The notes under the pieces: model-generated
Database searches by the model: none
Seen by the model: only the letters and a program-made list of their open reading frames with translations
Told to the model about the DNA's origin: nothing
Part shown: one piece after another, positions 20,901 through 61,602 of the stretch
Position numbering within the stretch: the first letter of the stretch is position 1
How the letters are laid out: each line of letters begins with the position of its first letter
Position numbers and translations under genes: made by a program
Origin: an uncultured bacterium
GTDB taxonomy: Bacteria; Babelota; Babeliae; Babelales; Vermiphilaceae
Assembly: GCA_963707655.1 (NCBI GenBank)
Contig: OY970172.1
Location: 672,001 to 736,000, forward strand
DNA length: 64,000 bases
Direction of reading: 5' to 3'

Positions 20901-21511
20901 TCGGGCTTAATTCCTTGCTGTATTGGCTGCTTGCATTAGTAGTGGGTATCGGTTGGATCATTAAAGACCCGGTGAGCGATTTTGTTTCCTATTTTATTAT
21001 CTTGGTACAGCGCCCCATTAAGGTGGGCGATTTAATACGGCTTGAAGAAGAGGGAGCTCCTGGTGTGGTTCGTCGCATCACGCCACGATCGGTATTAATG
21101 AGACGCAGAAACAGCACTACCGTTATTGTTCCAAACTCGGTAATAATCAATAAAAACATTATTAACTGGAACTATACGCGCGACTTTATCGCTTTTGATG
21201 ATATTTTGATTACCATATCGTATGAATCTGACGCAATTTTAGCACAGCGCATTTTTCTCTCTGTATTGAGCGAAAACCCTTACATTTTGAAAAACCCAAA
21301 ACCTGTCGTGCGTCTTGATGACTTTAGTGAAAACGGTTATGTGTTTATGGTCCGCGGCTTTTTGAGTTCAAATTATACGCTCGACCAATGGGATATTGCC
21401 AGCGATGTGCGTCTTTCTATGATTCGCATACTCAAAGAGGCCGGCATTGAAGTGGCGGTACCTATGCGCAGGCTTATTTCTGCCGACAATCAGCTTAACG
21501 AGAATAAATAA
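17933..21511 (+). CDS. Large mechanosensitive channel, MscS family (MscK-like)
   Basis: Signal peptide, long coiled coil, many TMs, C-terminal RPIKVGD, IVPNS, INW, NPKP.V. Confidence 0.88.
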   Translation: MKKLLHGIICLLAAFGHRMHADPIAELEKLGKHLLPASASVSTQDQKKIFTSNVESKQAMLANYQAEKKRLEEENRTNAPAITTELEETLSKIRVTEEVLRKDPDNEFLKRKKTLLSEKYYVLKEYQQAFEQQRHLIDQIIKNLTNYLADPENKKFIEQFHEKKKTFEELQVIYQKAIEEEKSLESLNDQEKNAISELDNRKRAANADNALYQQHKELLESERPVPEGMTRAEGGELWQLQEHLFTDKKRVDELKFEEIKLKLELIRLKMFIARVQRDTLRDTFRDMTSEVQVSEADVTNVKEDLEKKRQQFYTNVRSVDYAIEQSSNDLKMHKQELEILAKRYNIILDADLDKWSKEPKQLVSSYVGICEVGLENDIVLALYRKKDYLKSLIHKENEKIKQEETLLKIKETFHKIRFAKFSAKELDQELKNYDLIKAGIRAHISLYNERKNMATELLEVQKRALENIDQLRNDIKNTLKDTLFKDYSRDYTHCLELITNAIERIRAQIDLINKTMATYTDIIFLLSSTSKQIDFIVLELNSTTIWYRPQYAISWEGLMRIIPDVERFASDLTSYFSQVKPVVLLNAFKNSIKNPLSLFISFLLLLVMILLLLLAKIMLPSALHRIQVAAQTRAYVYTLYMFLVALGRFLLIHFNGIAVWLVMYGSFKLQIIDNPYLYSLFYLISIPYLLYLAHQFISYFASFNQEHGYLFLSKDFEFRFTLMFSALLYVTIILYFFKEAFMLGNYRRSELPSVLVALNFIFIQVVLIALIPKNQIVNLIPTHDIWGWIHEQINRYYYLVILCIVTIIVMSNPYVGFGRLVAYVIWRILYTIIVVIILLWLHRLIKRFCAYFFFVEEDDVQRERFAHAKSWYGFAVILLFLFFIFLGLIILAKVWGWPEQLAKISHIRDIVHGLQHPFTNVDQKPVSVWTILRLIFFILGGLGVSFAFNRFVMGKIFDILLIEPGIQNTISSITYYLCFVLSVIIGFNVVGLNSLLYWLLALVVGIGWIIKDPVSDFVSYFIILVQRPIKVGDLIRLEEEGAPGVVRRITPRSVLMRRRNSTTVIVPNSVIINKNIINWNYTRDFIAFDDILITISYESDAILAQRIFLSVLSENPYILKNPKPVVRLDDFSENGYVFMVRGFLSSNYTLDQWDIASDVRLSMIRILKEAGIEVAVPMRRLISADNQLNENK

Positions 21512-22734
21512 TCAGGATACGTAGCTCTATCTTTATTGCGTGTGTCTTGTAGTGCCTGGGCGTAGCCAGCCACCTGGCTTCCTATGCCTTCAGGATACAT
21601 GCTGTACGGCTTGCTCTTAGAATAGTGATGAGTGTATTGCATGATTAAGCTTAGCGCGCTGATGCTCAGACTTGCCATCGACAAGGCATTGTTTTTAACA
21701 TGTTCTTTAATAAAGCTTTTCCACGAAGACTCAAATAATTTTTTATTGCGCATTATTTCATCCAATGCATTTCTAAAATCTTGCTGACACGGATGCGCCT
21801 CATCACGCACCGCTGCATACGCGAGCATTTCTTGTGTTAACTCTTTGATTTCCCGTGCAGAGAAGCCATCAATCTTGTGCGCCATCATCTTGACCATCTC
21901 AGGGTCAATGCTATTGGCTGCATAAAAACTTATTATTTTTTCTCGCATTGCTCTATGGGGAAGATCGATGGCAACAATATGATTGCTGAATCGGCTTTTT
22001 AATGCATCGGGAATATTTTCTAGGCTGTTGGTGGTGCCTATGAAGAGTATGTTTTTATGAGACGAGCATTCATCAATCAATTGCCATAAAGCAACGGCAA
22101 CATCTTGATCGGCTCGTTGATCGTTCTTTTTTTTATCAATAAGACAATGAATTTCATCCAAAATAATCACATAGGGCTGGCTACTATTTTTGATAGAGGT
22201 AATAATGCGCTTCAGGTTTTGAGCGCCGGAATTTTGATACTCGGTAGCTAAAAGAGATGATTGCAGAAAGATAAAGGGGCGCCCAATTTTTTGCGCAATT
22301 GCTTTTGCTATATCAGATTTGCCAACGCCCGGCGGACCAACGAGCAGGAGCTTATCGGTTATTAATAAAGAGCGCAATGCCGGCAACGCATGGGGTGCAC
22401 GTTGAAAACGTTCGATAATGGTTTTAATCCGTGCAGGGCAATCCTGCAATAAATAGGCAACCAATGTATCGTCCAGTCTATCTTCTTGGGGCAATGCATC
22501 AGAAAATTGATCCGCTGATTGCGTGCCTACTGAAGATGACCAAAACAGCTCTTGCGGTATGTCTATGGAGGTAGGAAAACCCTTTTTTCCGGCACCTTCT
22601 AACATTTCTTCAAATGTCTTGTCGCTCATCATATAATTGTCATCAGACAACTCAGGCTGCTCATTTTCTGCGTACATGCCTATGCTGAACAGGCAGATGT
22701 TTAATAAAAATAGCTGATACAAAAGTTTGTTCAT
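21490..22734 (-). CDS. AAA+ ATPase with signal peptide and C-terminal hydrophobic helix
   Basis: GPPGVGKS, IILDE, GTTN...ALKSRF, GFSAREI. Confidence 0.88.
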   Translation of the reverse strand: MNKLLYQLFLLNICLFSIGMYAENEQPELSDDNYMMSDKTFEEMLEGAGKKGFPTSIDIPQELFWSSSVGTQSADQFSDALPQEDRLDDTLVAYLLQDCPARIKTIIERFQRAPHALPALRSLLITDKLLLVGPPGVGKSDIAKAIAQKIGRPFIFLQSSLLATEYQNSGAQNLKRIITSIKNSSQPYVIILDEIHCLIDKKKNDQRADQDVAVALWQLIDECSSHKNILFIGTTNSLENIPDALKSRFSNHIVAIDLPHRAMREKIISFYAANSIDPEMVKMMAHKIDGFSAREIKELTQEMLAYAAVRDEAHPCQQDFRNALDEIMRNKKLFESSWKSFIKEHVKNNALSMASLSISALSLIMQYTHHYSKSKPYSMYPEGIGSQVAGYAQALQDTRNKDRATYPDYLFSLS

Positions 22735-22768
22735 GTGAATGTTTTCGGAGTCTTATTTAAATGAATCT

Positions 22769-24220
22769 TTAAGCAGTTTTTTCTTCTTTGGGCGCGCGTT
22801 TGCAATAACGATATATAAAATAACCACCCACACCTACCGCAACAGGCACCCCAACGACTACCGCTGTTGGCGCTGCAGCGACGCTTGCTCCCACCCCAAC
22901 AAGTGTCGCTTTAAGGCCTCCAAGAAGAGTTGCTGCCGTCACTGTTTGTCCGGTAGCCACCGTCGCTACTACAGCAGTTGTTTCAAGCCCTGCGGCTGTC
23001 GACGCCCCAGAAGCGGCTGTTAGAGCAGCAGCTTCCGCAATTTTATCAATTGCATCTTTGTGTTCTCCAGCTTTCTCACAAACCACTTTCCCTGTGCTAA
23101 AAAGCCATTGCCCACCAGAAAGGATCATTGAACCGGCTGAGAGCAACAGACCATATGTTGCTGGATTAGCTGCAATAGGATGATCATTATAAAAGCGCTT
23201 CTCCCAAGATTCGCTTTCCTGTTTTTCGGAAGGGCTGTCTATTTTTAAAATTTGAACTGCGTGCTGTATTACTCCAGGTGTTAATTCAACGTGGTGATCA
23301 CATATTAGGCTTCTAATTCTTTTTGATAAAAATTCGAGATCGCGATGCGAGCAATCGTTGCATTCACGCGCAATAGTCGCAATGAGTTGTTCATTAATAG
23401 TGCCTTCTTTAAGTTCATCTGCCATACGAAATTTTATACTTTTTTCTTTTTCTTCTTGATTGGGTAACCCAATAGTAATTGTATGACTTGCAACCCTGCT
23501 GCGTAGCGTGTCTGGGAGATTATCAGTGCTATTGGCAGTGAAAATAAAGAAAAGATTTACGTTATCCAAAGCATTATCTATAGAAGTCCCAAGTGCAAGT
23601 CCTGTATCCTGCTTGTGAATTTTTTTGATGTCACTAAAGCCATGGAGTTCATCTAAAATAACAACGGCAAAATCTTTATTCATGGCCTGCGCTTTTTCGA
23701 TGGACCTTTGTAGATTTGCTTCAGCTGAATTTTGGTATTCATTACCAAGCGATGCTCCTTGGAGAAAAACAAAAGGCGCGTTTATTTCTTGCGCGATAGC
23801 CTTCGCAATATGTGATTTGCCCCCTCCCGGAGGTCCAACCAATAATATAGCCGAGGTCATGAGATGCTTCTTTTTTGTTTTAACATCTGTGGATTTGTAT
23901 TTTTTAATATTTTTTACAGTGTCACGTAAATTTTTAGGACAGGTTTCTATGAGAAAATCAGCGTATTCTTGATCAAGGCAACCATCGCACAGCGGCTCGT
24001 CTTTCTTCTTGTCGGTCTCGCTTTCTCCGTTTATTTCTTCGTAAAAATCTTCTTCTTCCGCATATTCTGCGGTATCTCTTTTGGGGAAAAGATGCGCTTG
24101 CAAACTCTCATCGCTATACGCATTATCGTGCGCAGGGTTCTTGACGAACTCGGGTGTGATGGCATTAAGTTGTGCGAGCATCAGAACAATGGTTAAGATA
24201 CTGTAACGAATAATTTTCAT
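22769..24220 (-). CDS. AAA+ ATPase with signal peptide and C-terminal hydrophobic segments
   Basis: GPPGGGKS, VILDE, TAN...TLRSR; Ala/Gly/Val-rich TM tail. Confidence 0.88.
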   Translation of the reverse strand: MKIIRYSILTIVLMLAQLNAITPEFVKNPAHDNAYSDESLQAHLFPKRDTAEYAEEEDFYEEINGESETDKKKDEPLCDGCLDQEYADFLIETCPKNLRDTVKNIKKYKSTDVKTKKKHLMTSAILLVGPPGGGKSHIAKAIAQEINAPFVFLQGASLGNEYQNSAEANLQRSIEKAQAMNKDFAVVILDELHGFSDIKKIHKQDTGLALGTSIDNALDNVNLFFIFTANSTDNLPDTLRSRVASHTITIGLPNQEEKEKSIKFRMADELKEGTINEQLIATIARECNDCSHRDLEFLSKRIRSLICDHHVELTPGVIQHAVQILKIDSPSEKQESESWEKRFYNDHPIAANPATYGLLLSAGSMILSGGQWLFSTGKVVCEKAGEHKDAIDKIAEAAALTAASGASTAAGLETTAVVATVATGQTVTAATLLGGLKATLVGVGASVAAAPTAVVVGVPVAVGVGGYFIYRYCKRAPKEEKTA

Positions 24221-24272
24221 TATAATTCCTTCTTGTTAATAATGAAATGTGCTGATAAGTTCAATGTTTTAT

Positions 24273-25406
24273 TTATTGAGTAATGGGCGCGGCTATGGCA
24301 ATTTGTTGCTGGTCCTCGGGCTCTGTTGGTTTTTTGTTTTTTTCCACTTCTTCTTTTTTCTTTTTCACATTTGTTCTCTCTGCCGCCGCATAGCCGATAT
24401 TGTACATAGCAAGAGAATTTCCCAAGGCCCCCACAAAAGGCATTACTGCTGGATGATTTCTGCAAAATCGCTGCTGCCAATTTTCCTTTTTTCCGTGCCG
24501 TGCATTGTTAAAGGCTTTGATGTCATTGTCAAAAGCTTCGACTTGTCTCGCTACGCACTCATCAAAAGCTTCTGCCGGCTCATCAAGAAAATCCTCCACC
24601 CAGCGAGACAACGCGGCTAAATGTTCATAGGAAAAATTTTTGGTTTTTTTCGCCAAGGACAGAATAAATTTTTCATTGATCATCTTGTTTTCCGGGGCAT
24701 CTTTAAAAAAGATGTTGAAAGCTTCTACACGCGCCTCTTGGCTAGGATATGTTATGGCAACATGCTGGCGGTTGAGTCGACTCGTTACGCGGGGAGGAAA
24801 ATTTGCCATGTCATAGGTTGTGCAAATAAGAAAAATATTATTGCAAGCGCATCGATCGATAAAACTGCACAAAGGATATTGCGCATGCTCATTGTTCTCT
24901 AAAAGATGATCCATATTGTTCAAAATAATTATTAGTTGCTCATTGCGCTTTTTAGCGGCCCGCGCAAAACATTCTAAATAAGGTTCGCACGCGCTGAAAA
25001 CATATGATTCTATTTGAAGAACGCGAGCCTTCATGTGTTGAGCAATCGCTTTTGCCAAGTCCGCTCTGTCGCTCCCCGTTGGGCCAGTAAGCAAAAGAGT
25101 TCGATCCAAAAAACGTTTTCTGTCCTTTTCGTTATTTCTTGCTTCCATAGCTTCAAAATGTTGTAACAACTCTTTTACTTCTGCGGGACTATATTTTATG
25201 AGAAAGTCTGCATATTCGCTATCTAAACGGCGACTTCGGTTTTTTAATGACTCGTTTATGATGCGAATCTCTTCCTGCTTTTGTGCAATTCTTTGCTGCT
25301 CAGTCAGCTCTACCGGTATATAGGAAGCCTTTGTTTTATGCGACGCTTGCACGTGCAATGAATATATGCTCAAAAAAATCAAGAGATAATAGCTCGTATG
25401 CTTCAT
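24273..25406 (-). CDS. Degenerate AAA+ ATPase paralog with signal peptide
   Basis: Walker A GPTGSDRA (no GK), Walker B ILNNMD; shares LDSEYADFLI and WQQRFCRNHP blocks with neighbour. Confidence 0.75.
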   Translation of the reverse strand: MKHTSYYLLIFLSIYSLHVQASHKTKASYIPVELTEQQRIAQKQEEIRIINESLKNRSRRLDSEYADFLIKYSPAEVKELLQHFEAMEARNNEKDRKRFLDRTLLLTGPTGSDRADLAKAIAQHMKARVLQIESYVFSACEPYLECFARAAKKRNEQLIIILNNMDHLLENNEHAQYPLCSFIDRCACNNIFLICTTYDMANFPPRVTSRLNRQHVAITYPSQEARVEAFNIFFKDAPENKMINEKFILSLAKKTKNFSYEHLAALSRWVEDFLDEPAEAFDECVARQVEAFDNDIKAFNNARHGKKENWQQRFCRNHPAVMPFVGALGNSLAMYNIGYAAAERTNVKKKKEEVEKNKKPTEPEDQQQIAIAAPITQ

Positions 25407-36612: not shown

Positions 36613-38184
36613 TCAACTTTTGCGCAAAGCGACCTCTTGAATGGCTTGCTTTATCAGATCAACATTTTGCTTAATACCAAAATAGGCCAAGCCACCCAAC
36701 GTATTGATCTGCTCTTGTGAATATTTAAAGTTAAAAGTACCACAATATTCATTTTCGCAAGCAACCGGATCAAAGCTGGTTGAATAATCACTATTGCTAA
36801 TCATAGGAAAATAGATAACAATCGGACATGCGCTGTTTGTTTCATCTTTAAATACACGCACAACACTTGTCCCTAAATCGGTGTAATCAATCGGTGGAAA
36901 CGGCACATTATTGCGTTCTGCATATTCCTGTGTTTGTCTGAGCGTATCAAAATTTTGATTGCCCTCAGTGGCATCATACACAATAATAATATCAACCGCA
37001 CGCGCAGGGCGCAGCAATGGGGGAAACGGCAGGTTACATGACAAGCCGCCATCCATCAACGTAAGATGGGTTTTATCTTTAAGAGGACTTGCCACAAATT
37101 TGTATGAAAAATTTTTCTCGTTTGAAGGGGCTATGCGCACGGTGTTGGCCGCATGATTAACCTTAATATCATGCAACATAGCAGTGATAGCCGGTTGCAT
37201 AAAAGAGGGCAATGCATCAACATCGGCAAAAATAGAAGCGCTGTAGCTATTAATAAGATCGCGCACATTCGCATCATATGCTGACCCAAACACTCCCATC
37301 ATATACGCAAGGGAAAGTTCCGGCGCTTTTTCAGTTGAAACGCCATTTTCAAATGAGCGGCCATACGCGTGTGTTGGGATATAGGTTTTGGCATACGAGC
37401 TCCCCATCTCATAAGGAGTACACTCAAACCATTGATATGGGTAAACATCCGGCGTTACCGCGGTATAAATAGGCAAAGGATATGCACCGCTCTCTACCGC
37501 TTTATGAGTATCTGAGAGCGTTACAAAAAAACGGTTATCGCCAAACTCTTGCAATAAGAGATTTGCCAGAAAAGTGCTATAAATATCGATTGATGAAAAA
37601 CCTTGTCCCGACTCAACTTTTCTTATTAAATAATCTGAAATATGCCAAAGATCATCAGCCGCCTGCGAAGCATTCAATCCATTCTCTGTTTTTGCACCAA
37701 GGCCATTAATATAGGTAGGCAAATCTATGCCGGAGCTGATCCATGGCGCTAAGGCCCATGTTGAACCTGAGAGCCCTGCCGCGTATAATGCGCTATCAAG
37801 CAACCCCTCTTCTTGCGCCGCTTTTAATGCGAACAATGCAGTAATCATTGCACGAAAACCGCCACCACTAAAGCACCATGCTATGCGGGGACAAGTATCT
37901 TGATTTGTCTGAATACCCATGGCGTTCAATGCGCTGCATACTGTTGCAAGACGCTTGGCAATTACTGCTTCTTCCTCTGCGCATAGAGAGTCTGCAGCAT
38001 CATAACGAACCGCTATTTTTTTATTATTGAGTTGCCCAATATGTGCAAATAATGTTTGTAAAAATTGCGGCATCCATCGTAGCTTATGTTCATATAAAAC
38101 ATATTCTGAGGTATCATTCAAAGCGCAAGAAAACGTAGGTAATAATAAAAGACAAAAAAACAAAACAACAGGATTTTTCTTCAT
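36613..38184 (-). CDS. Secreted cPLA2/phospholipase B-like lysophospholipase
   Basis: SGGGFRAM oxyanion, GLSGSTW nucleophile, WFECTPYE, GVFGSA, LMDGG..CNLP, R.VDIII. Confidence 0.88.
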   Translation of the reverse strand: MKKNPVVLFFCLLLLPTFSCALNDTSEYVLYEHKLRWMPQFLQTLFAHIGQLNNKKIAVRYDAADSLCAEEEAVIAKRLATVCSALNAMGIQTNQDTCPRIAWCFSGGGFRAMITALFALKAAQEEGLLDSALYAAGLSGSTWALAPWISSGIDLPTYINGLGAKTENGLNASQAADDLWHISDYLIRKVESGQGFSSIDIYSTFLANLLLQEFGDNRFFVTLSDTHKAVESGAYPLPIYTAVTPDVYPYQWFECTPYEMGSSYAKTYIPTHAYGRSFENGVSTEKAPELSLAYMMGVFGSAYDANVRDLINSYSASIFADVDALPSFMQPAITAMLHDIKVNHAANTVRIAPSNEKNFSYKFVASPLKDKTHLTLMDGGLSCNLPFPPLLRPARAVDIIIVYDATEGNQNFDTLRQTQEYAERNNVPFPPIDYTDLGTSVVRVFKDETNSACPIVIYFPMISNSDYSTSFDPVACENEYCGTFNFKYSQEQINTLGGLAYFGIKQNVDLIKQAIQEVALRKS

Positions 38185-50921: not shown

Positions 50922-52106
50922 TTAAACGGCGACTCTTAACAGTTCAGATAGGGTAATAATACCCTGCGCTACCTTGCGAGCACCGTCAACCAATAAGGGT
51001 TGCAATCCGTCATTGCGTGCCTGCGCAATAATGTCATCAACAATCGGAGAATTAACAATTAAAGAGCGCAAGTTACCGGTCATAACCAGCAACTCAAAAA
51101 TACCTACACGGCCCTTATATCCCCGGCCTTTGCAGGACCCACAGCCAATGCCTTTATATAGACATTCAACCATTAATCCCATCTGTTGTAACATGAGCTG
51201 CTCTTCTTCACTTGGTTCAACCATCACACGGCATGCCAGGCAAATTTTTCTTGCCAGGCGCTGGGCAAGCACACCGGTTAGCGAAGCGTTGATTAAAAAT
51301 GGCTCAATGCCCATATCCATTAAACGCATGATGACGCTTGGCGCATCATTGGTATGTATGGTGCTTAATACCAAATGCCCTGTCAGCGATGCCTCCAGTG
51401 CAATTTGTGCCGTTTCACGGTCACGAATTTCCCCCACCATTACGATATCGGGGTCCTGGCGCAACACAGAGCGCATTCCTTTTGCAAAAGTAAAACCGGC
51501 ATCAGGGTTTACTTGACCCTGCGTCACCCCCAAAAGGTTATATTCAACCGGATCTTCCAGCGTGATAATATGCTTTTCAGCAAGATTAAGAGTATCAAGA
51601 GCCGCATAGAGCGTGGTAGTTTTTCCCGCACCGGTGGGGCCGCATACTAATAAAAATCCCTGCTGCTTACTCAAAAGCTCCTGAACGGTAAAATACATCT
51701 GCGAATCAAAGCCCAACGAATCAAGCTTTATTGTTTGGGCGGAGCGATCCAAAATACGCACCACCATGTTTTCACCGTACAAAGAGGGAAACGTGGATAC
51801 GCGCAAATCTATTTCTTTATGTTCGTACGCGATACGAAATTTACCGTCTTGAGGAATGCGCTTTTCAGCTATGTCAATGCGCGCAAGCACTTTGAGGCGT
51901 GCGCTCAACTGACTCATAAATGCTGCTTCGATAATTTGTTGATCGTATAAAATGCCATCTACACGAAAACGGATACGTCCTGAGTGCGCTGCCGGTTCAA
52001 TGTGAATGTCTGAGGCAGATTGATCAATGGCTGCATATAACAATGAATTAACCAGCCGAACAATGGGCGCTTCTTCATGAAGTGTATGCGATTGTAATCC
52101 AATCAC
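50922..52106 (-). CDS. GspE/PilB family secretion/pilus ATPase (ATPase part)
   Basis: ASDIHIEP, PQDG, GPTGAGKTT, EDPVE, LRQDPD, TGHLVLST, tetracysteine motif. Confidence 0.93.
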   Translation of the reverse strand: MIGLQSHTLHEEAPIVRLVNSLLYAAIDQSASDIHIEPAAHSGRIRFRVDGILYDQQIIEAAFMSQLSARLKVLARIDIAEKRIPQDGKFRIAYEHKEIDLRVSTFPSLYGENMVVRILDRSAQTIKLDSLGFDSQMYFTVQELLSKQQGFLLVCGPTGAGKTTTLYAALDTLNLAEKHIITLEDPVEYNLLGVTQGQVNPDAGFTFAKGMRSVLRQDPDIVMVGEIRDRETAQIALEASLTGHLVLSTIHTNDAPSVIMRLMDMGIEPFLINASLTGVLAQRLARKICLACRVMVEPSEEEQLMLQQMGLMVECLYKGIGCGSCKGRGYKGRVGIFELLVMTGNLRSLIVNSPIVDDIIAQARNDGLQPLLVDGARKVAQGIITLSELLRVAV

Positions 52107-52639
52107 CCTTCACCTTCTTCAATCTCTTCTATTTCTTTACGCTCCTCATCAGCTGATTCCAAATCTTCAACGAGATCATAATCATCAGTCAATGACTTGT
52201 CGTAATATTCTTTAACCGCATCTTCAATATCGCGGGCAATGCCAACATAAAATTGAATATCATCAGAGGTATATTTTCGTAACGCAGGCAACAAATCTGC
52301 ATTACCCGGATCGCTCGCTGCTATCATCAATATATCTTCATCAATCTCTACCGGAATAATGTTATTGCGTAACAAAAAATCCTTAGGGAAATCGCGCACG
52401 AGCAAATGATCAAAAAAATAACCTTCTACATCAAAAAAAGGTACTTGATAATAACTGGAAAGCGCTTTAAGAGTCTCTTCTTTATCAACAAAGGCTTCTT
52501 CCAATAAAAATTCTATGAACCAATCGTGAGACGATTGAGAGAAGCCTTTTTGCAAACCTTCTGCTTCAGACGTGGAAATAACTTTATTTTTTGCCAGTAT
52601 TGCCGAAATTGCCTGGGCAAATTCTTGCTGGTTTATCAT
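52103..52639 (-). CDS. GspE/PilB N-terminal-domain-like protein
   Basis: LLEE..V....LKALS.YY.VPF, IIPV, IAASDP pattern; GTGA overlap with ATPase gene. Confidence 0.75.
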   Translation of the reverse strand: MINQQEFAQAISAILAKNKVISTSEAEGLQKGFSQSSHDWFIEFLLEEAFVDKEETLKALSSYYQVPFFDVEGYFFDHLLVRDFPKDFLLRNNIIPVEIDEDILMIAASDPGNADLLPALRKYTSDDIQFYVGIARDIEDAVKEYYDKSLTDDYDLVEDLESADEERKEIEEIEEGEG

Positions 52640-53194: not shown

Positions 53195-53465
53195 CTACTT
53201 AATCATAGTGCGTAATGCTTTACCTGCTCTGAATTTAGGAACTTTCTTTGCAGGGATTTGCATTTTCTTGCCGGTTGCAGGGTTTACACCAACTCTGCTT
53301 TTTCTTTTCATCACAGTAAAGGTACCAAAGCCAGTTAAAACAACATCTTTACTTGATTTTAATGCGTGCTCACTGAGTGAATAAAAGCTTCTAAGCATTC
53401 TTTGCATGTGATTTCGACATCTTGGTCATTTTCGCCATGCTTTCAACTAATTTTGCCTTATTCAT
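53195..53465 (-). CDS. hup: DNA-binding protein HU, two apparent 1-nt deletions
   Basis: MNKAKLVESMAKMTKMSKS/CKECLEAFIHSV/HALK...GFGTF...GVNPATG...PKFRAGKAL; 271 nt + 2 = 90 aa plus stop. Confidence 0.85.
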
Positions 53466-53790
53466 GTATAAAATCCTTTTTTCTGATTCACCTGTTAAAC
53501 AGCAAACAAAAAAAGCTAGTACTAATTGGTAAAATAGTAACAGGATATTTTTCTGTCAAGATTTTTGTGTTGCCCTATTGGCGAGTGCAATAAATATGCT
53601 TACACAACAGCATATTTATTTTTATGGGTGAAATGCTCGAATGACAAAATCAATAATGATTCGCAAATTTTTCTTCCCGATATGGACAAGGACAGTGAGG
53701 TTGGGGTAATGTAAGCTTTGTTCGTATATAAAGCCTGCACGGATCTTTCGTTCATTTGATGATGTCCTGTTATGAGAAGGTTATTCTGCC

Positions 53791-54990
53791 ATGAAAAAAT
53801 ATATACTAGTCTTGGGCATGCTTGAAATGTGCTCACTGACATGCATGGATAGTAAATCAGCCCAAAAGACCATTTCTCATTTTTTTGTGATTAACAAAGA
53901 AATGACCCTACCACAATTTGTCTCGTCCAGGTTCCAAGCACAGGGAATCAATGCTGGCTTGCAAAACTTTAAACAAAGACTGACTTGTGTCCCATGTAAT
54001 TACAAGACTGAAAGGGCTTGGGAATACGACGAACACTCAAGAACTAGAAAGCACCAAGCGCTAACAAAAATCGCTACGACAGACCAAGAGCGCCGGATTC
54101 AAGCAGCATGGAATAGACACCAGAAAAAATTCATTTGCGCTTGTAATACAACCTTTCTGAATGTGTTTCAATTTGAAAGGCATCACTGCATTGCACAAGA
54201 AACTTTAGCAAATTTCATGCATTCCGAACAAGACCTGATGTGTGTCCCTTGTAATTATTATGCTAAAAGCGCTTATGAATACAAGACGCACGTCGAAAAA
54301 ACTGTTCGACACCAAGCGCTAATAAAAATCGCCACGACTGATCAAGAGCGCCGAGTCCAAGCAGCGTGGGATAGAGAACGGAAAATATTCATTTGCGCTT
54401 GTAATAAAACTTTTCTGAATGTGTTTCAATTTGAAAATCACCAGTGCATTCCACAAAAAACTCTAGCAAGTTGCATGAATTCCGAACAAAAACTGGCTTG
54501 TGCCCCATGTAATTATGAGACTAAAAACGCTCGGGACTACATCCGACACGTTAACACATCTATGCTACACCAAGCGCTAACAAAAATCGCTACGACCGAC
54601 CAAGAGCGCCGGATTCAAGCAGCATGGAATAGAGAACTGAGAAGATTAATTTGCGCTTGCAATAAAGCTTTTCTGAACGTGTCTCACTTTGAAAGGCATC
54701 ACTGCAGTAAAACTCAATTTTTAGCAAATAACACTGATCAAAGCGATCTAGGTTTCAATGAAGAACTACAAGATGGACAGGATGTTATTAGAGATGTTCA
54801 GAGCGCTATGGATAAGCACTCGATTCAGGAAAATGGCCGGCTAGATAGTTTTTATCCAAGCATCACGTATGATGACCAAATAGATTCAACATCGTATCAA
54901 GATGAACAGGACCTTGCTCTTGGCACTGATGAGGATTTGCGTGAATGGTTGGGAAACATGACCGCATCTTCTCATGAAAAAGATGCCTAA
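53791..54990 (+). CDS. Secreted zinc-finger repeat protein 1 (3 units)
   Basis: MKK signal; 3 x [CxxC-x12-H-x5/6-H, QALTKIATTDQERRIQAAW, CxC-x12-HxC]; acidic tail. Confidence 0.85.
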   Translation: MKKYILVLGMLEMCSLTCMDSKSAQKTISHFFVINKEMTLPQFVSSRFQAQGINAGLQNFKQRLTCVPCNYKTERAWEYDEHSRTRKHQALTKIATTDQERRIQAAWNRHQKKFICACNTTFLNVFQFERHHCIAQETLANFMHSEQDLMCVPCNYYAKSAYEYKTHVEKTVRHQALIKIATTDQERRVQAAWDRERKIFICACNKTFLNVFQFENHQCIPQKTLASCMNSEQKLACAPCNYETKNARDYIRHVNTSMLHQALTKIATTDQERRIQAAWNRELRRLICACNKAFLNVSHFERHHCSKTQFLANNTDQSDLGFNEELQDGQDVIRDVQSAMDKHSIQENGRLDSFYPSITYDDQIDSTSYQDEQDLALGTDEDLREWLGNMTASSHEKDA

Positions 54991-57875
54991 CATAGATTGC
55001 TGCATGGACAAGAAGAGCTAGGTTGGGTAATGTAAACTCTGTTTGTACATAAACCCTGCACAGATCATTCATTTTGATAATGTCCTGTTATAAGAAGGTT
55101 ATTCTGCTATGAAAAAATATATACTAGTCTTGGGCATGCTTGAAATTTGCTTACTCACGTGCATGGATAATAAACCCGGCCAAAAGACCGTTTCTGATTT
55201 TTTTGTGATTAAAAAAGAAATGACCTTTCCGCGATTTGTCTCGTCGAGATGCCAGGTGCCAAGAGAACCTGGTGGCTCGCAAAGCTTTGAGCGAAGCCCG
55301 GCTTGCATCACGTGCAATTATAAGGCTAAAAGCGTTCTTGACTACAACCGACACGTCAAAAAAACTACTCTACATCAAGCGCTAACCAGAATCGCTACAA
55401 CAGATCGCGAGCTCCGGATACAAAAAGCGTGGAACAGAGATCAGAGAAGATTCATTTGCGCTTGCAATAAAATTTTTCCGAATGTACTTCACTTTGAAAA
55501 CCATGTCTGCATTTTACAAGAAAATCTGGCAAGCTTCGTGAATTCTGAGCAAAGCCTGACGTGCAGCGCCTGTAATTATAGCAATACGATGGCTTCGGAA
55601 TTCCAAACCCACTGTAACTCTAGACAACACCAAGCGCTAACAAAAATCGCTACGACAGACCAAGAACGCCGAATACAAGCAGCATGGGATAGAGACCAGA
55701 GAAAATTCATTTGCACTTGCGGCAAGGCTTTTTCGAATGTATTTCACTTTGAAACCCATGTCTGCATTTTACAAGAAAATCTGGCAAGCTTCGTGAGTTC
55801 TGAACAAAGCCTGACATGCACCACCTGTAATTATAGCAATACAATGGCTTCGGAATTCCAAACCCACTGCAACACTAGACAACACCAAACGTTAACAAAA
55901 ATGGCTACGACAGACCAAGAGCGCCGGGTCCAAGCGGCATGGGATAGAGGCAAGAGAAGATTCATTTGCGCTTGCAATAAAGTTTTTCCGAATGCGTTTC
56001 GTTTTGAAAATCATCGATGCAATGAATCTCAATTTTTAGCAAACAACACTGATCAAAGCGATCTAGGTTTCAATGAAGAACTACAAGATGAACAGAATGT
56101 TATCGGAGACGCTCAGGGCGCTATGGATGAGCATTTGATTCAGCAAAATGGCTGGCTAGATAGTTTTTATCCAAGCATCACACATTATGAACAAGACCTT
56201 GCTCTTGGCACTGATGCAGCAGTAGCTGCTTTAACCAGTCTTCAAAAAACCTGCGTCATCTGCAATTATACCGCTAAAGATGTCAGGCAATATAAGCAAC
56301 ACTCCCGCAACGCGACACACCAAGCATTAACAAAAATTGCTACGACAGACCAAGAGCGCCGGATTCAAGCAGCGTGGGATAGAGAACAGAGAAAATTCAT
56401 TTGCGCTTGTAATAGAGCTTTTCTGTACGTGCCTCACTTTGAAAGGCATCACTGCAGTAAAATTCGATTTTTAGCAAACAATACTGATCAAAGCGATCTT
56501 CTAGGTTTCAATGAAGAACTGCAAGCTGAACAAGATGTTATTAGAGACGCTCGGGGCGCTATCGATGATCAAATAGATTCAACATCGTATCAAGATGAAC
56601 AGGACCTTGCTCTTGGCACCGATGAGGATTTGCGTGAATGGTTGGGAAACATGACCGCATATTCTCGTGAAAAAGATGCCTAACACCGATCTTTCATTCA
56701 TTTTGATGGTGTCCTGTCATGAGAAGGTTATTCTGCTATGAAAAAATATATACTAGCCTTGAGCGTGCTTGAAGTTTGTTCATTGACATGCATGGACAGT
56801 GGATCCGGCAGAAATGCCATTTCCTCTTATTTTGTTCTTGAAAAAGAGCAAACGCTACGACAGTTTGCCGCACAGCGAGACAAAGATCGAGAAGCGGTAG
56901 CTGCTTTAACTAGTCTTCAAAAAACCTGCGTCACCTGCAATTATACCGCTAAAGATGCTCGGCAATATAGGCCACACTCGCGCAACGCGACACACCAAGC
57001 ATTAACAAAAACCGCTACGACAGACCAAGAGCGCCGGATTCAAGCAGCGTGGAATAGAGAACTGAAAAAGTTCACTTGCTCCTGTGGAGCACTTTTTTCT
57101 GACATGGGCCGCTTTAAAGCCCACCACTGCATTTTGCAAAAAAAGTTCGCAAATTTTATAACTCCTGAACAGCATCTGACGTGCGCCACGTGTAATCATA
57201 GCGACAGATTGCCTGCCAGCTTCCAAAGGCACTTAGAAAGCGCACACCATGAAGCACTGACAAAAATTGCCAGCACAGATCAAGAACACCGAGTTCAAGC
57301 AGCATGGAACAGAGAACAAAAAAAATTCATTTGTTCTTGTGGCAATGTTTTTTCGCGTATAGATTTTTTTCAAGGACATGACTGTATCCAAAATAGTTTT
57401 CTGGATTCTGAACAAGGCTTTGTATGTACCACCTGCAATTATAAAACCACAGAAACTGATTTATTCATAAAACATCGCAAAAACGCTATCCACTTGGCGT
57501 TAACAAAGACCGCTACCACTGACCAAGAACGCCGGGTGCAGGCAGCCTGGAACCGAGCACAGAGAAAATTCATTTGCATTTGTGATAAGTATTTTTATCG
57601 TCTATCCGATTTTGAAAACCATGAATGCATGTTGACAGATAATTTTTCTAACCTTGAAAAAGAGCTTAATTGCGCTCCATGCAATTATAAAGTCGCTGAT
57701 GGCTGGCATTGGGCAAGACACTTAAACAGCGCACAACATCAGGCATTAACAAAGACCGCCATAACTGATCAAGAACGCTGGATTCAAGCCGCATGGAACA
57801 AAGACTCAAAAACGTTCATTTGTTACTGCGATAAAGGTTTTCATGATATAACCCTTTTAAAACGACACCGCTGCA
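53986..57875 (+). repeat. Eleven copies of an ~255-bp coding repeat across three genes
   Basis: Unit starts at 53986, 54241, 54499 in gene 1; 255-nt period at 55501/55756 in gene 2; conserved core caccaagc.ctaacaaaaat.gctacgac.gaccaaga.cgccg. Confidence 0.9.
55109..56683 (+). CDS. Secreted zinc-finger repeat protein 2 (4 units, chimeric)
   Basis: Same architecture; internal copy of the acidic tail before unit 4. Confidence 0.85.
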   Translation: MKKYILVLGMLEICLLTCMDNKPGQKTVSDFFVIKKEMTFPRFVSSRCQVPREPGGSQSFERSPACITCNYKAKSVLDYNRHVKKTTLHQALTRIATTDRELRIQKAWNRDQRRFICACNKIFPNVLHFENHVCILQENLASFVNSEQSLTCSACNYSNTMASEFQTHCNSRQHQALTKIATTDQERRIQAAWDRDQRKFICTCGKAFSNVFHFETHVCILQENLASFVSSEQSLTCTTCNYSNTMASEFQTHCNTRQHQTLTKMATTDQERRVQAAWDRGKRRFICACNKVFPNAFRFENHRCNESQFLANNTDQSDLGFNEELQDEQNVIGDAQGAMDEHLIQQNGWLDSFYPSITHYEQDLALGTDAAVAALTSLQKTCVICNYTAKDVRQYKQHSRNATHQALTKIATTDQERRIQAAWDREQRKFICACNRAFLYVPHFERHHCSKIRFLANNTDQSDLLGFNEELQAEQDVIRDARGAIDDQIDSTSYQDEQDLALGTDEDLREWLGNMTAYSREKDA

Positions 57876-58060
57876 ATAAAAATCCATTTTTAGTACATGA
57901 CGCTGATAAAAACAATCAAGATCTTGACCAAGAAGTGGTAGACAAACAAGATATTTCTCTGCCCGGAGAAGATGATTTAGATGAATGGCTAGATAGAGTA
58001 GAAACATCTCGGGTAAAAAAGATGCTTGAAACTAGATTTAATGCGGTTAGTTCTGATTAA
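56738..58060 (+). CDS. Secreted zinc-finger repeat protein 3 (4 units)
   Basis: Same architecture; tail EDDLDEWLD. Confidence 0.85.
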   Translation: MKKYILALSVLEVCSLTCMDSGSGRNAISSYFVLEKEQTLRQFAAQRDKDREAVAALTSLQKTCVTCNYTAKDARQYRPHSRNATHQALTKTATTDQERRIQAAWNRELKKFTCSCGALFSDMGRFKAHHCILQKKFANFITPEQHLTCATCNHSDRLPASFQRHLESAHHEALTKIASTDQEHRVQAAWNREQKKFICSCGNVFSRIDFFQGHDCIQNSFLDSEQGFVCTTCNYKTTETDLFIKHRKNAIHLALTKTATTDQERRVQAAWNRAQRKFICICDKYFYRLSDFENHECMLTDNFSNLEKELNCAPCNYKVADGWHWARHLNSAQHQALTKTAITDQERWIQAAWNKDSKTFICYCDKGFHDITLLKRHRCNKNPFLVHDADKNNQDLDQEVVDKQDISLPGEDDLDEWLDRVETSRVKKMLETRFNAVSSD

Positions 58061-58208
58061 TTTGGCGTGCCAGCCGTAGTTTTGCCAAGGCGGAAACTCT
58101 GGATAAACGAAGGCTGCTCTGCTTCGCTACGTGCCATAATTGCAATGGTGGCTAAGCTCTTTCCTAAAGAGGCTGGCCTACCGTACGAAGCTCTAACAGA
58201 GCGAAGTA

Positions 58209-58296
58209 TGGTGCCGAGAGCCGGACTCGAACCGGCACAGGCTATAAGCCCGAAGGATTTTAAGTCCTTTGCGTCTACCAATTCCGCCATCCCGGC
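58209..58296 (-). tRNA. tRNA-Leu(TAA)
   Basis: GCCGGGATGGCGGAATTGGTAGACGC AAGGA-CTTAAAA-TCCTT, long variable arm, GGTTCGAGTCC, CCA end. Confidence 0.96.
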
Positions 58297-58322: not shown

Positions 58323-58396
58323 TGGAGGCGGCACCCGGATTTGAACCGGGGATCAGGGTTTTGCAGACCCTTGCCTTACCACTTGGCTATGCCGCC
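58323..58396 (-). tRNA. tRNA-Cys(GCA)
   Basis: GGCGGCATAGCCAAGTGGTAAGGC, anticodon loop CTGCAAA, GGTTCAAATCC, TCCA end. Confidence 0.96.
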
Positions 58397-58996: not shown

Positions 58997-59989
58997 TCAA
59001 TGAATGAATTGTAAACATCTGGCGGAGCGCACCCGTTTAAAAAAATCAATCGGGTGTTGTAGCAGATCAAAAATCCACCAATCATATTCACTATCAACTG
59101 AAAAAATCCTAAAAAGAATTCTCCCATGAATCAGCCTGCCATCCAATGGTCCAATAAAACGACAATCTCTACTTCCTTGTCTATTGTCCCCCATCACCCA
59201 ATACTGATTCTTGCCTAATTCAACATAAAATTCATCGGAACAATTCCAGCGGCTCTTGCCTTCACACCGCTCTCTGTCACAAGTCGGATTTCGTGTTAGT
59301 GGCGTTTCGGCCTCCAATAGTATCAAATCCCCTTTTTCGTCTCTAATAAGGCGATTTTCTCTTAACAAATAAAATGGTTGCTTATTGAAAGGCACTGACG
59401 GATCATACGATCGCGGATTCGTATGGTCTGCCATAAATTCTTCAACGGCATTTTTATTGGCGCGTTGCACATCTCCTTGCAACAAGGTCTTGTCTTGTTC
59501 TTGTTTAATCCGCCCGTACAAAGTCTCCGGATCTTCATCAAAGCTCATAGCCAAAGGATATTTGTTTAAATACGGCTCATCTAATTTAAGGCTATTCACA
59601 TAAACTACCGGCTTGCCATCCTCTATAACGCCCTTAACAATATCCCCCGGCACACCAATCACTCGCTTGGTCCAATTGCTTGGCCCCCATACATAATTTT
59701 GGAAAAGAGACATGCCAAAAGAAGAGGAGTAATGAAAAAGCGGATCATTGAATGAGATAATTTCGCCTCGTTGCGGCTTACGAAAAAGATAGGTTGCTTT
59801 ATCGGCAAAAAATCTTTCTCCCACGAGCATTGTTGTTTCCATTGATCCGGTAGGAACTTGATAGAGACCAAAGCCAAAGGTTCTTATTAAAAAAATAACC
59901 GTGACCCACAGCAATATCTCGCGCCAACCCCCATCTCTGCATTGTTTATATAAAGATTTGTTTGATTGCTTCTGTTTTGAATGCGCCAT
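58997..59989 (-). CDS. lepB: Signal peptidase I
   Basis: VPTGSMETT (Ser), TKRVIGVPGD (Lys), MGDNR..S.DCR. Confidence 0.93.
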   Translation of the reverse strand: MAHSKQKQSNKSLYKQCRDGGWREILLWVTVIFLIRTFGFGLYQVPTGSMETTMLVGERFFADKATYLFRKPQRGEIISFNDPLFHYSSSFGMSLFQNYVWGPSNWTKRVIGVPGDIVKGVIEDGKPVVYVNSLKLDEPYLNKYPLAMSFDEDPETLYGRIKQEQDKTLLQGDVQRANKNAVEEFMADHTNPRSYDPSVPFNKQPFYLLRENRLIRDEKGDLILLEAETPLTRNPTCDRERCEGKSRWNCSDEFYVELGKNQYWVMGDNRQGSRDCRFIGPLDGRLIHGRILFRIFSVDSEYDWWIFDLLQHPIDFFKRVRSARCLQFIH

Positions 59990-60627: not shown

Positions 60628-61602
60628 CTACTTAACAAATTGCAAGCATCTGCTCCAGCGGATACGCTTGAAAAAATCAATCGGATGACGCAAGAGATCA
60701 AAAATAATCCAGGTATGTGCGCTGTCAACAGAGAAAATTCTAAATAACATTTTTCCATGAATGAGTGAGCCGTCGATTGGTCCAAAGAAACGGCAGTCAT
60801 AGCTACCTTCGCGATTGTCTCCCATGCCCCAGTATTGATTTTTACCGAGCTCAACATAAAACTCATCAGTACCGTTCCAATAACTGTTACCTACGCGAAA
60901 TGCTTTGTGGTGCTTCGATTTTTCTAGAGGCGTGCCCGGCCAGCGCAATTCTATTTCACCTGCTTTATTTCTTCTTACTCCGCTTTCTTTAATATTATAA
61001 AACGGTTGGTGATCAAATGGCTTTGAAGGGTCGTACGTTTTCCAGCGAGTGCTGTAGCTTGCTTGTTCTGAAGAAAAACTTTGCAATTCTTCCATACTTA
61101 TTTGACCGCTGAGTACATATTTTAGATTTTCTTTTTCTATCGTTTTGGGATCTATGCCATAGATACCAATGAGAGGATATTGGTTAAGATACGGTTCATT
61201 AAGCTTTTCGCCATTGAGGTAAACCGCTGTTTTGCCATCTTCAATAACTCCCCTGATTGTGTCACCGGGAACAGCAATCAAACGCTTGGTTACGTTGGTT
61301 GGACCCCAGACATAATACTGAAAAAGTTTTTTGACAGGGTTTGAGGAATATTTGAAGGTCACATCATTTAACGAGATAATTTCCCCGCGTCTGGGTGCGC
61401 GAAACCAATAGGTCAGCTTATCAGCAAAAAAACTTTCGCCAATCAGCATGGTTGTTTCTGCCGATCCGGTTGGCACTTGGTACAAGCCAAAACCAAATGT
61501 TCTGACAGCAAAGATAACAACGATCCAAAGAAGCAATTCGCCCCAACTGTTTTTACCAAAATTTTTTTTGTAAAAAGGCGTATTCGATTTTTTTTCCAAC
61601 AT
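60628..61602 (-). CDS. lepB: Signal peptidase I, second paralog
   Basis: VPTGSAETT, TKRLIAVPGD, MGDNR..S.DCR. Confidence 0.92.
   Translation of the reverse strand: MLEKKSNTPFYKKNFGKNSWGELLLWIVVIFAVRTFGFGLYQVPTGSAETTMLIGESFFADKLTYWFRAPRRGEIISLNDVTFKYSSNPVKKLFQYYVWGPTNVTKRLIAVPGDTIRGVIEDGKTAVYLNGEKLNEPYLNQYPLIGIYGIDPKTIEKENLKYVLSGQISMEELQSFSSEQASYSTRWKTYDPSKPFDHQPFYNIKESGVRRNKAGEIELRWPGTPLEKSKHHKAFRVGNSYWNGTDEFYVELGKNQYWGMGDNREGSYDCRFFGPIDGSLIHGKMLFRIFSVDSAHTWIIFDLLRHPIDFFKRIRWSRCLQFVK

Follow-up and report, generated by a model that had tools for sequence, protein, structure and literature searches.

A lineage-specific array of leader-bearing two-finger zinc-finger repeat proteins: candidate host-directed effectors of a Dependentiae bacterium

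We analysed a 64,000-nucleotide stretch of the genome of an uncultured bacterium (the window; GenBank assembly GCA_963707655.1, contig OY970172.1, positions 672,001 to 736,000) and found three genes, A, B and C, that lie head-to-tail on the plus strand, with all frames open, and encode repetitive zinc-finger proteins of 399, 524 and 440 amino acids (aa). Each protein combines an N-terminal hydrophobic leader, three or four copies of a two-finger unit and an acidic tail. We refer to the genome that holds the window as G000. The features of the array are as follows, in window coordinates (pI, isoelectric point).

53774-53780, plus strand: Shine-Dalgarno-like GAGAAGG, 10 nt before the leader ATG of A
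53791-54990, plus strand: gene A, 399 aa; leader, three two-finger units, acidic tail
53791-53844, plus strand: leader of A, residues 1-18
53950-54198, 54205-54456 and 54463-54714, plus strand: units A1, A2 and A3 (motif scan, alignment)
54715-54987, plus strand: tail of A, net charge -17, pI 4.1; EDLREWL at 54931-54951
55109-56683, plus strand: gene B, 524 aa; leader, three units, a tail-like acidic insert, a fourth unit, acidic tail
55109-55162, plus strand: leader of B
55268-55519, 55526-55774, 55781-56029 and 56216-56464, plus strand: units B1, B2, B3 and B4 (motif scan, alignment)
56465-56680, plus strand: tail of B; EDLREWL at 56624-56644
56738-58060, plus strand: gene C, 440 aa; leader, four units, acidic tail
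56738-56791, plus strand: leader of C
56891-57139, 57146-57394, 57389-57637 and 57635-57883, plus strand: units C1, C2, C3 and C4 (motif scan, alignment, AlphaFold2 model of C)
57884-58057, plus strand: tail of C; DDLDEWL at 57971-57991

In the unit (83-84 aa), a near-invariant helix of 22 residues separates a first finger, CxxC-x12-H-x5/6-H, from a second one, CxC-x12-HxC. Regular-expression scans recovered eleven first fingers, with x5 between the histidines in 8/11 and x6 in 3/11, and eleven second fingers, both types being distributed 3+4+4 over A, B and C. An initial annotation of this DNA had described three tandem genes with 11 copies of an ~85-aa module, and this description holds; the nine helix strings that it quoted are likewise all present in the proteins. 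The alignment of the 11 units comprises 87 columns with a mean column identity of 62%. Its 18 invariant columns include all 8 putative metal ligands as well as the spacer residues L, A, T, D, E, Q, A and W. The core of the spacer helix reads ..LTKIATTDQERRIQAAW.., and the proposed near-invariance of this segment was borne out by an entropy of 0.40 bits, the value that stands out along the unit. At the DNA level, Tandem Repeats Finder reported periodicities of 258 and 255 nt.

We then analyzed how the 11 units differ from each other: their codons were aligned, a tree was built with FastTree and parsimony changes were counted per column. Since repeats that recombine violate the single-tree assumption, the resulting dN/dS-like ratios are only descriptive.

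Spacer helix: ratio 0.16, p(<1) = 3e-14
Zinc knuckle of finger 1: ratio 0.22, constrained
Zinc knuckle of finger 2: ratio 0.27, constrained
Linker before finger 1: ratio 0.69, p(<1) = 0.045
Finger-2 helix: ratio 0.93, not above 1
Finger-1 hairpin end and helix: ratio 1.08, p(>1) = 0.45
Basic linker: ratio 1.15, not above 1
H-x5-H loop: ratio 1.21, p(>1) = 0.34

The conservation of the spacer helix suggests that it serves a constant function in every unit, either structural or as a shared contact. The helix of finger 1 is highly variable, with entropies of 2.66, 2.66, 2.37, 2.66 and 2.30 bits at positions -1, +2, +3, +5 and +6 and lower values at +1 (1.87 bits) and +4 (1.32 bits). Positions -1, +2, +3 and +6 are the classical DNA contacts of C2H2 fingers. 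The claim that variation is concentrated before the first histidine was thus correct in that the helix varies strongly; as a statement of where variation is confined it did not stand, because three more regions vary too, with mean entropies of 2.18 bits in the H-x5-H loop, 1.81 bits in the linker before finger 1 and 1.66 bits in the finger-2 helix. The face that presumably binds is therefore where variation is enriched, though other parts of the unit vary as well. Positive selection on the recognition helix is not supported, and the selection check, which the initial annotation had suggested in a per-site form, identified no region significantly above 1.

The hydrophobic N-terminal leader that had been predicted for all three genes is indeed present in each of them and is kept in one distant homologue (P0148, see below). 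It starts with MKKYIL and contains a 14-residue hydrophobic stretch that ends in LTC and is followed by Met-Asp. Its 10-residue mean hydropathy (2.25-2.51) falls inside the range of the 392 leader-bearing open reading frames (ORFs) of genome G000. The last ~50 nt upstream of A, B and C are ~90% identical (blastn), and the GAGAAGG sequence 10 nt before the upstream ATG favours this start over the internal Met. Promoter and terminator scans did not exceed shuffled expectation (6 vs 9.8 and 4 vs 5.6, respectively). Leaders are common in this genome: they are found in 392/1048 ORFs of a crude ORF set (~37%), and signal peptides were reported for 44% of the coding sequences of Chromulinavorax (PMC6561590; this report and the others cited here are covered in part). 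The array leaders end in a small residue before Met-Asp, and a small residue followed by Met-Asp/Glu marks the leader end in 67/392 leader ORFs of G000, compared to 6/392 in a control window and 14/656 ORFs that lack a leader. Ala is the commonest residue before the Met, and the motif may represent a cleavage or sorting motif typical of the lineage.

The proteins show a pronounced charge layout. Net charge over the finger arrays is +11 to +15, with a basic pI of about 9; the tails are acidic and carry -9 to -17, with a pI of about 4.1. All three tails share the motif DL.EWL, in the form EDLREWL in A and B and DDLDEWL in C. In an AlphaFold2 (AF2) model of C the tail is disordered up to a low-confidence helix, residues 411-438, that covers the motif. 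The pattern [DE][DE]L.[DEQ][WF][LA] occurs 11 times in 315 thousand residues, compared to 0.55 times in shuffles, and 8/11 occurrences lie in acidic parts of finger proteins: three in this array, where they are C-terminal, and five in a second array of genome G000, where they sit N-terminal to the fingers.

Comparison with known families and structures identified the unit as a pair of C2H2-type fingers, as had been predicted. In Pfam, gene A exceeded the cut-off of zf-C2H2_REST (PF24540; 33.3 bits vs 27) and genes B and C that of zf-C2H2_2 (PF12756; 36.6 and 31.5 bits, respectively, vs 26.9), and NCBIfam and PHROGs returned nothing meaningful. The AF2 model of unit A1, computed from the 11-unit alignment, reached a predicted local distance difference test score (pLDDT) of 86.8 and a predicted template modelling score (pTM) of 0.70. 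It shows two beta-beta-alpha fingers, with strands at 11-13 and 18-20, a helix at 23-30, a strand at 60-62 and a helix at 72-77. In order, a hairpin with its helix is followed by a short second helix, by the spacer as third helix and by another hairpin with a helix. A sequence profile search of the PDB gave 24 matches at E<=1, none of them below E 0.01, of which 23 are zinc-finger proteins, and no fold other than zinc fingers emerged from a wide VIA search. The best VIA match was the ZF3-ZF4 pair of JACKDAW/IDD10 (5b3h_F; Z 3.3, 51 residues aligned, 26% identity), a C2H2 plus C2HC pair that was solved bound to the SHR-SCR protein complex. Relatives of finger 2 weakly match the Pfam C2HC BIRD-IDD model. 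Finger 1 together with the next helix superposes on a TUT1 finger (9j8p) with a root-mean-square deviation of 1.3 Å over 33 residues (Z 2.5) and on SF3A2 (6qx9) with 1.9 Å over 33 residues (Z 2.3), and the same segment matches the double-stranded RNA-binding finger of JAZ with Z 2.8. At these low scores, the modelled finger 1 looks U1/JAZ-like.

The three genes are part of a wider set. A motif scan of the crude ORF set detected 12 leader-plus-finger proteins in genome G000. The nine besides A, B and C are a single-unit paralogue, one two-finger protein, one three-finger protein and the products of a six-gene second array. This second array (G000:C1:358647-364929) consists of six tandem leader-bearing genes of 265-385 aa with 34 single C2H2 fingers by motif scan (33 aligned), which have H-x5-H spacing, recur with a 40-aa period and are joined by the linker ..HLEKTGQSLPDWQAYEFT... 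The proteins pass the cut-offs of zf-C2H2_2, jaz, REST and zf-met. Along the helix, entropy is highest at positions -2, -1, +2, +3 and +6 (2.7-3.5 bits) and low at +1, +4 and +5. The acidic N-terminal region carries the motif variant DELAQWAM, and the leaders contain a lipobox-like LAC in 5/6 genes, which is extended to LLAC in three. Among 261 genomes of the phylum, the second array was found in G000 only, plus one weak match in G231, a genome of the same genus. The single-unit paralogue (G000 301490-301966, 158 aa) has a leader that ends in LLSMDS. It lies between MutS-like and inorganic-pyrophosphatase-like genes, near an ATP/ADP translocase gene, and has a homologue of 123 aa in a metagenome (P0025).

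Searching 1.84 billion representative proteins with the unit profile yielded 146 matches at E<=0.001 and 8 at E<=1e-10; the sole match at E<=1e-30 was genome G000's own protein. Sequences were retrieved for 28 of the 146 matches and, in addition, for P0148 and P0149 as cluster members. A full homologue was found only once: P0003/P0148, a metagenome protein of 414 aa with 27% identity. Its N-terminus is a strongly hydrophobic, signal-peptide-like leader; it further has three units built in the same way, one classical finger and a low-complexity tail whose end, ELLDEFL, is similar to the tail motif of the array. Metagenome contigs searched with A2 and with P0148 gave no confirmed match. When P0148 was searched against the 261 phylum genomes, one weak match (E 4e-4, with an internal stop) was found beyond G000, and a word-indexed protein search with gene C (candidates of 242-770 aa) retrieved only the genome's own proteins. 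Matches of A2 in Acidobacteria and Opitutus metagenome-assembled genomes (5 loci, 40 residues, E ~1e-3) were judged spurious. With the unit profile, 7/261 phylum species genomes gave matches at E<=0.01, but the full array occurs only in G000 and the remaining matches are weak matches to other finger proteins. We read the frames at eight such matches from six other genomes: five have a clear leader, two no recognisable N-terminus and one is unclear. The PF12756 model gave matches in 5/261 genomes, none above the cut-off; as genome G000 itself gave only one match, this search is too insensitive to map the spread of the family. A contig of G231 (G231:C29, locus L048 32-1758) carries, in tandem, three genes that combine a leader with fingers and encode 141, 194 and 224 aa. 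They resemble neither array of G000, so finger gene content turns over between species.

Seven small AT-rich proteins (alignment A3) have both fingers including the unusual CxC knuckle. When compared by hhalign, the unit alignment and A3 matched over 73 columns that cover both fingers and the spacer (98.8%, E 1.3e-16). Judged by sequence, the unit is homologous to these small giant-virus-like two-finger proteins. Their viral origin rests on the taxon labels of the Atlas and one IMG/VR contig: the nearest Atlas clusters are ~110-aa proteins labelled Nucleocytoviricota, with a score of 0.88, which is below the lead level of 0.9, and P0114 as a query matched one IMG/VR locus through finger 1 only. 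One A3 member scored 24.5 bits against the chlorovirus family DUF1390, just under its cut-off of 24.7, and a tblastn search of phage records with P0063 gave no match. Three long Asn-rich proteins (P0005, P0007 and P0012; 483-1472 aa) repeat a U1-like finger, a spacer of the form A[ST]..[EQ]...LPP and a second finger, and the N-terminus of P0007 appears ankyrin-repeat-like by eye. Their build is reminiscent of the array unit, and they look eukaryotic or giant-viral.

Genome G000 consists of a single contig of 1.09 Mb. It has three matches to ATP/ADP (TLC) translocases, compared to 0/14 control genomes, 26 ankyrin matches, some of them in leader-bearing ORFs, and two secretins; two secretins were also reported for TM6 genomes (PMC4776705). 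These features fit the Dependentiae label and a reduced, host-dependent genome, in agreement with the initial annotation, which took the source for a probable protist-infecting bacterium. The array is not an assembly artefact, since metagenome contigs match it: 14/15 small contigs from 4 runs of 3 studies (soil, peat, wetland) match the stretch at >=99%, and some of them bridge the B-C junction. One of the 4 runs may be the source sample. Elsewhere in the window we noted three consecutive AAA ATPase genes (414, 483 and 377 aa; 21490-25406, minus strand) and a gene for a eukaryote-type lysophospholipase, PLA2_B (36613-38184, minus strand), which may be further host-interaction genes.

We compared the locus with the corresponding loci of G231 and of G185, a genome of another genus of the family.

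53571-58199, no strand assigned: insertion holding A, B and C, 4.63 kb, between the HU-like gene and the 3' end of tRNA-Leu(taa)
58209-58296, minus strand: tRNA-Leu(taa) (ARAGORN); pair with tRNA-Cys also in G231 and G185
58323-58396, minus strand: tRNA-Cys(gca) (ARAGORN)

Homology between the G231 locus and the window ends at 53570 and resumes at 58200 (blastn), and G231 has ~115 bp at the site where G000 has 4.63 kb. No finger motif was found in six frames at the G231 and G185 loci, where a split GspE/PilB-type ATPase is followed by a small membrane ORF, HU, tRNA-Leu(taa), tRNA-Cys, rhodanese and signal peptidase. As both genomes are without the array at this site, the 4.6-kb array is, by this comparison of loci, a lineage-specific insertion beside a tRNA 3' end. 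The borders have no direct repeat of >=11 bp and no integrase-like ORF was seen in the ORF listing of the region. Gene B is a mosaic of A-like and C-like DNA (blastn), which shows that the paralogues have recombined. Positions 55004-56194 of B are collinear with 53682-54879 of A over 1.2 kb at 78%, including a partial A-like tail; 56218-56404 match the first unit of C (56893-57079) at 92%; and after this C-like stretch B matches the end of A in stretches of 88% and 96%, the latter at 56560-56685 of B and 54868-54992 of A. This mosaic, the absence of the insertion from the site in G231 and G185 and the restriction of the full array to G000 among the 261 phylum genomes point to fast turnover, as would be expected for host-interaction genes.

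The neighbourhood holds further features. The HU-like gene that borders the insertion (53195-53500, minus strand) has its first ~35 codons in three frames, and its orthologues in G231 and G185 are intact; the gene is either frameshifted or contains sequence errors. The GspE/PilB-type ATPase (50922-52639, minus strand) is divided into an MshEN ORF of 178 aa and a T2SSE core of 394 aa with a 4-nt overlap; because the same split recurs in G231 and G185, it represents a conserved arrangement and not a break. Downstream of the array lie two signal peptidase I paralogues (58997-59989 and 60628-61602, both on the minus strand).

How might such proteins be used? We lean, with modest confidence, towards the idea that A, B and C are exported, host-directed effectors of a protist-parasitic Dependentiae bacterium that act as follows. 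Each pre-protein would carry a Sec-type leader and would be exported via Sec and then a type II route, according to the literature the only path of secretion found in the phylum, and the mature protein would reach the host cell. There, the three or four rigid two-finger units would fold around zinc, and the basic array would attach to a macromolecule of the host. Nucleic acid, as an RNA duplex or as DNA, would be the most likely target, and the variable helix residues of each unit would determine what is bound. The acidic disordered tail with its DL.EWL motif would recruit or titrate a host factor in the manner of an acidic activation domain. Along this path we infer that the leader is cleaved, that the protein is exported and delivered to the host and that it binds zinc, as well as what the ligand is and what the tail does. 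That the proteins are exported host-directed effectors of some kind, whatever they bind, we consider probable. This reading is based on the match between a leader combined with eukaryote-like repeats and the published export design of Dependentiae (PMC4378268; PMC6561590). In Babela massiliensis, 79/126 ankyrin proteins have signal peptides and were judged to be secreted into the amoeba, and type II is the only secretion system that was found (PMC4378268). Since the array is basic and finger 1 is U1/JAZ-like, nucleic acid appears a more likely ligand than protein, as far as sequence and models allow.

A bolder version of the proposal, which we regard as rather unlikely, holds that the bacterium evolved, or borrowed from giant viruses or protists, modular zinc-finger effectors that would read short words of host DNA or structured RNA unit by unit, would have their units shuffled among paralogues by recombination and would recruit the host's transcription or RNA-processing machinery through their tails. 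The second array would belong to the same arsenal, because its variation peaks include the contact positions -1, +2, +3 and +6.

Several observations weigh against the effector mechanism set out above. No region of the unit has a ratio significantly above 1 (p = 0.34-0.45 for the H-x5-H loop and the finger-1 helix), so the variation may reflect relaxed constraint and not diversifying selection. Family and structural assignments are at low scores: Foldseek gave no match in the PDB at E<=0.001, all VIA matches had Z <4, the zf-met model (PF12874) reached 8.3 bits and thus stayed below its cut-off of 21.2, and with zf-C2H2_jaz (PF12171; B 23.9, A 19.5 and C 10.6 bits, cut-off 22.6) only B scored above the threshold. 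The U1/JAZ type that had been assigned to finger 1 therefore survives as a low-score likeness together with the H-x5-H spacing, and not as a family assignment for all three proteins. In the full-length AF2 model of C, which was built from a shallow 4-sequence alignment, the units have pLDDT values of 70-83 but the overall pTM is 0.25, and the ~10-residue linkers between units fall below pLDDT 50. Classical TGEKP linkers are absent, unlike in DNA-reading C2H2 arrays. The modelled layout thus resembles beads on a string, with flexible linkers between the units, and lends no support to a solenoid like that of TALEs (transcription activator-like effectors), to which the initial annotation had likened the array. 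No nuclear localisation signal was identified in the proteins (no predictor was used), and none of the sequencing runs that hold the stretch is on record as RNA. The tail motif was defined post hoc, from these very sequences, so only its recurrence across two otherwise different families carries weight. Finally, genome G000 encodes a VKOR homologue (89 bits), which suggests an oxidising periplasm in which the 5 cysteines per unit could form disulfides. DsbA, DsbB and Thioredoxin_4 had no match in G000; a lacking disulfide-forming system as an argument for the export of reduced fingers was dropped because VKOR is present. Fungal C2H2 effectors likewise travel an oxidising secretory route (PMC12488382).

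These points leave room for other explanations. A serious rival, although we hold it to be rather doubtful, is that the proteins are exported as effectors but use their fingers to bind proteins of the host and not nucleic acids, each unit being a protein-recognition module and the spacer helix a common docking or scaffolding face. It is serious because of the IDD-like pairing of a C2H2 with a C2HC finger and the flexible spacing: the best structural match is such a pair in a protein complex, the relatives of finger 2 weakly resemble the BIRD-IDD model, and the long flexible distances between units are unlike those of DNA-reading arrays. The most conserved element, moreover, is the spacer helix and not the fingers. 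The basic arrays and the U1/JAZ-like finger 1 favour nucleic acid instead, and the structural scores are all too low to separate the two ligand types. Less probable, in our view improbable, is that the proteins stay in the periplasm, the outer membrane or the surface as metal-binding or disulfide-stabilised envelope or adhesion modules. A Sec-type leader alone reaches the periplasm only, a VKOR homologue is present, and with leaders on ~37% of the crude ORFs a leader by itself is no mark of an effector. Against this, the five cysteines of a unit cannot all be paired in disulfide bonds, the spacing of the ligands and the beta-beta-alpha folds of the model are of the cytosolic or nuclear zinc-finger type, and a basic array with an acidic disordered tail is not the pattern of an envelope protein. 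Furthermore, Pfam and NCBIfam gave no match at a useful score to a periplasmic or disulfide family; such a match had been named in the initial annotation as evidence against its own reading of host-targeting effectors.

It is very unlikely that A, B and C are cytoplasmic bacterial regulators whose leader is a mis-called start, or is non-functional, with the true start at the Met of the Met-Asp pair. Prokaryotic C2H2-like regulators such as Ros/MucR do exist, and in A, B and C alike the hydrophobic stretch is followed by a Met. However, the GAGAAGG sequence precedes the upstream ATG and not the internal Met, the hydrophobic N-terminus is kept in the 27%-identical homologue and in the nine other finger proteins of G000, and the Ros/MucR finger (ROS_MUCR, PF05443) is absent from the Pfam families listed at E<=10 for A, B and C. 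We give even less credence to the idea that the array is repeat DNA that came from a giant virus or a eukaryote and is now decaying or without function. The homology of the unit to small metagenome two-finger proteins, the Nucleocytoviricota label of the nearest Atlas clusters (a lead only) and the fact that the region is an insertion would be compatible with such an origin, but A, B and C have open frames, their start regions are conserved and the scaffold, with the low ratio of its spacer helix, is under strong purifying selection.

Provided that A, B and C reach host cells and bind nucleic acid, they would represent a new class of bacterial nucleomodulin. They would also offer a natural source of composite two-finger units in which a fixed scaffold carries variable reading residues and, should the modular code apply, a zinc-finger counterpart of TAL effectors that uses the Sec/type II route. 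In addition, the array links candidate effectors of Dependentiae to giant-virus-like finger proteins, a link that agrees with an exchange of genes between parasites living in common protist hosts. In the literature on Dependentiae, nucleomodulins, bacterial effectors and amoeba bacteria, no C2H2 array behind a secretion leader was found at the level of titles and abstracts. A term count over the main texts of PMC4378268 and PMC4776705 gave 0 for both 'zinc' and 'C2H2', and PMC6561590 does not mention zinc fingers in the passages covered.

The array can nevertheless be placed among known systems. The design of a Sec leader followed by eukaryote-type repeats is the same as in the ankyrin proteins of Babela massiliensis, and it is the type of domain that differs. 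The giant-virus-like A3 proteins show the same order as the unit, namely a CxxC-[ND]Y..H-x5-H finger, a spacer and a CxC-x12-H-x(1-3)-C finger, but they are single units of ~100-150 aa without a leader, a repeat array or an acidic DL.EWL tail. With the RNA-duplex binders of the U1/matrin/JAZ (ZNF346) type, finger 1 shares the H-x5-H spacing of 8/11 copies, and it superposes, at low Z values, on TUT1, SF3A2 and JAZ. Unlike in those proteins, an invariant helix and a CxC-x12-HxC finger accompany each U1-like finger, a combination found in no Pfam family. TAL effectors are bacterial tandem repeats with few variable positions each and an acidic C-terminal region that act on a eukaryotic host target. 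The array resembles them in its tandem repeats with variable positions and its acidic C-terminus. However, the TAL repeat is a helical element of 33-35 aa with a variable di-residue and the repeat described here a two-finger unit of 83-84 aa; TAL effectors carry a type III signal, whereas the array proteins have a Sec-type leader, flexible linkers and no predicted solenoid. More generally, intracellular bacteria export eukaryote-like repeat proteins with ankyrin, F-box or TAL repeats. MoHTR1 and MoHTR2 of the rice blast fungus are pathogen-exported proteins that act in the host nucleus and, like A, B and C, place a C2H2 finger after a signal peptide or leader; MoHTR2 has 110 aa, a signal peptide and one C2H2 domain (PMC12488382). 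Compared by description, the MoHTR proteins are fungal and small with one finger domain, whereas the proteins described here are bacterial and combine 6-8 fingers in 3-4 units with an acidic tail. As candidate effectors, the array proteins would belong with the eukaryote-like repeat effectors of intracellular bacteria and with the secreted finger effectors of fungi.

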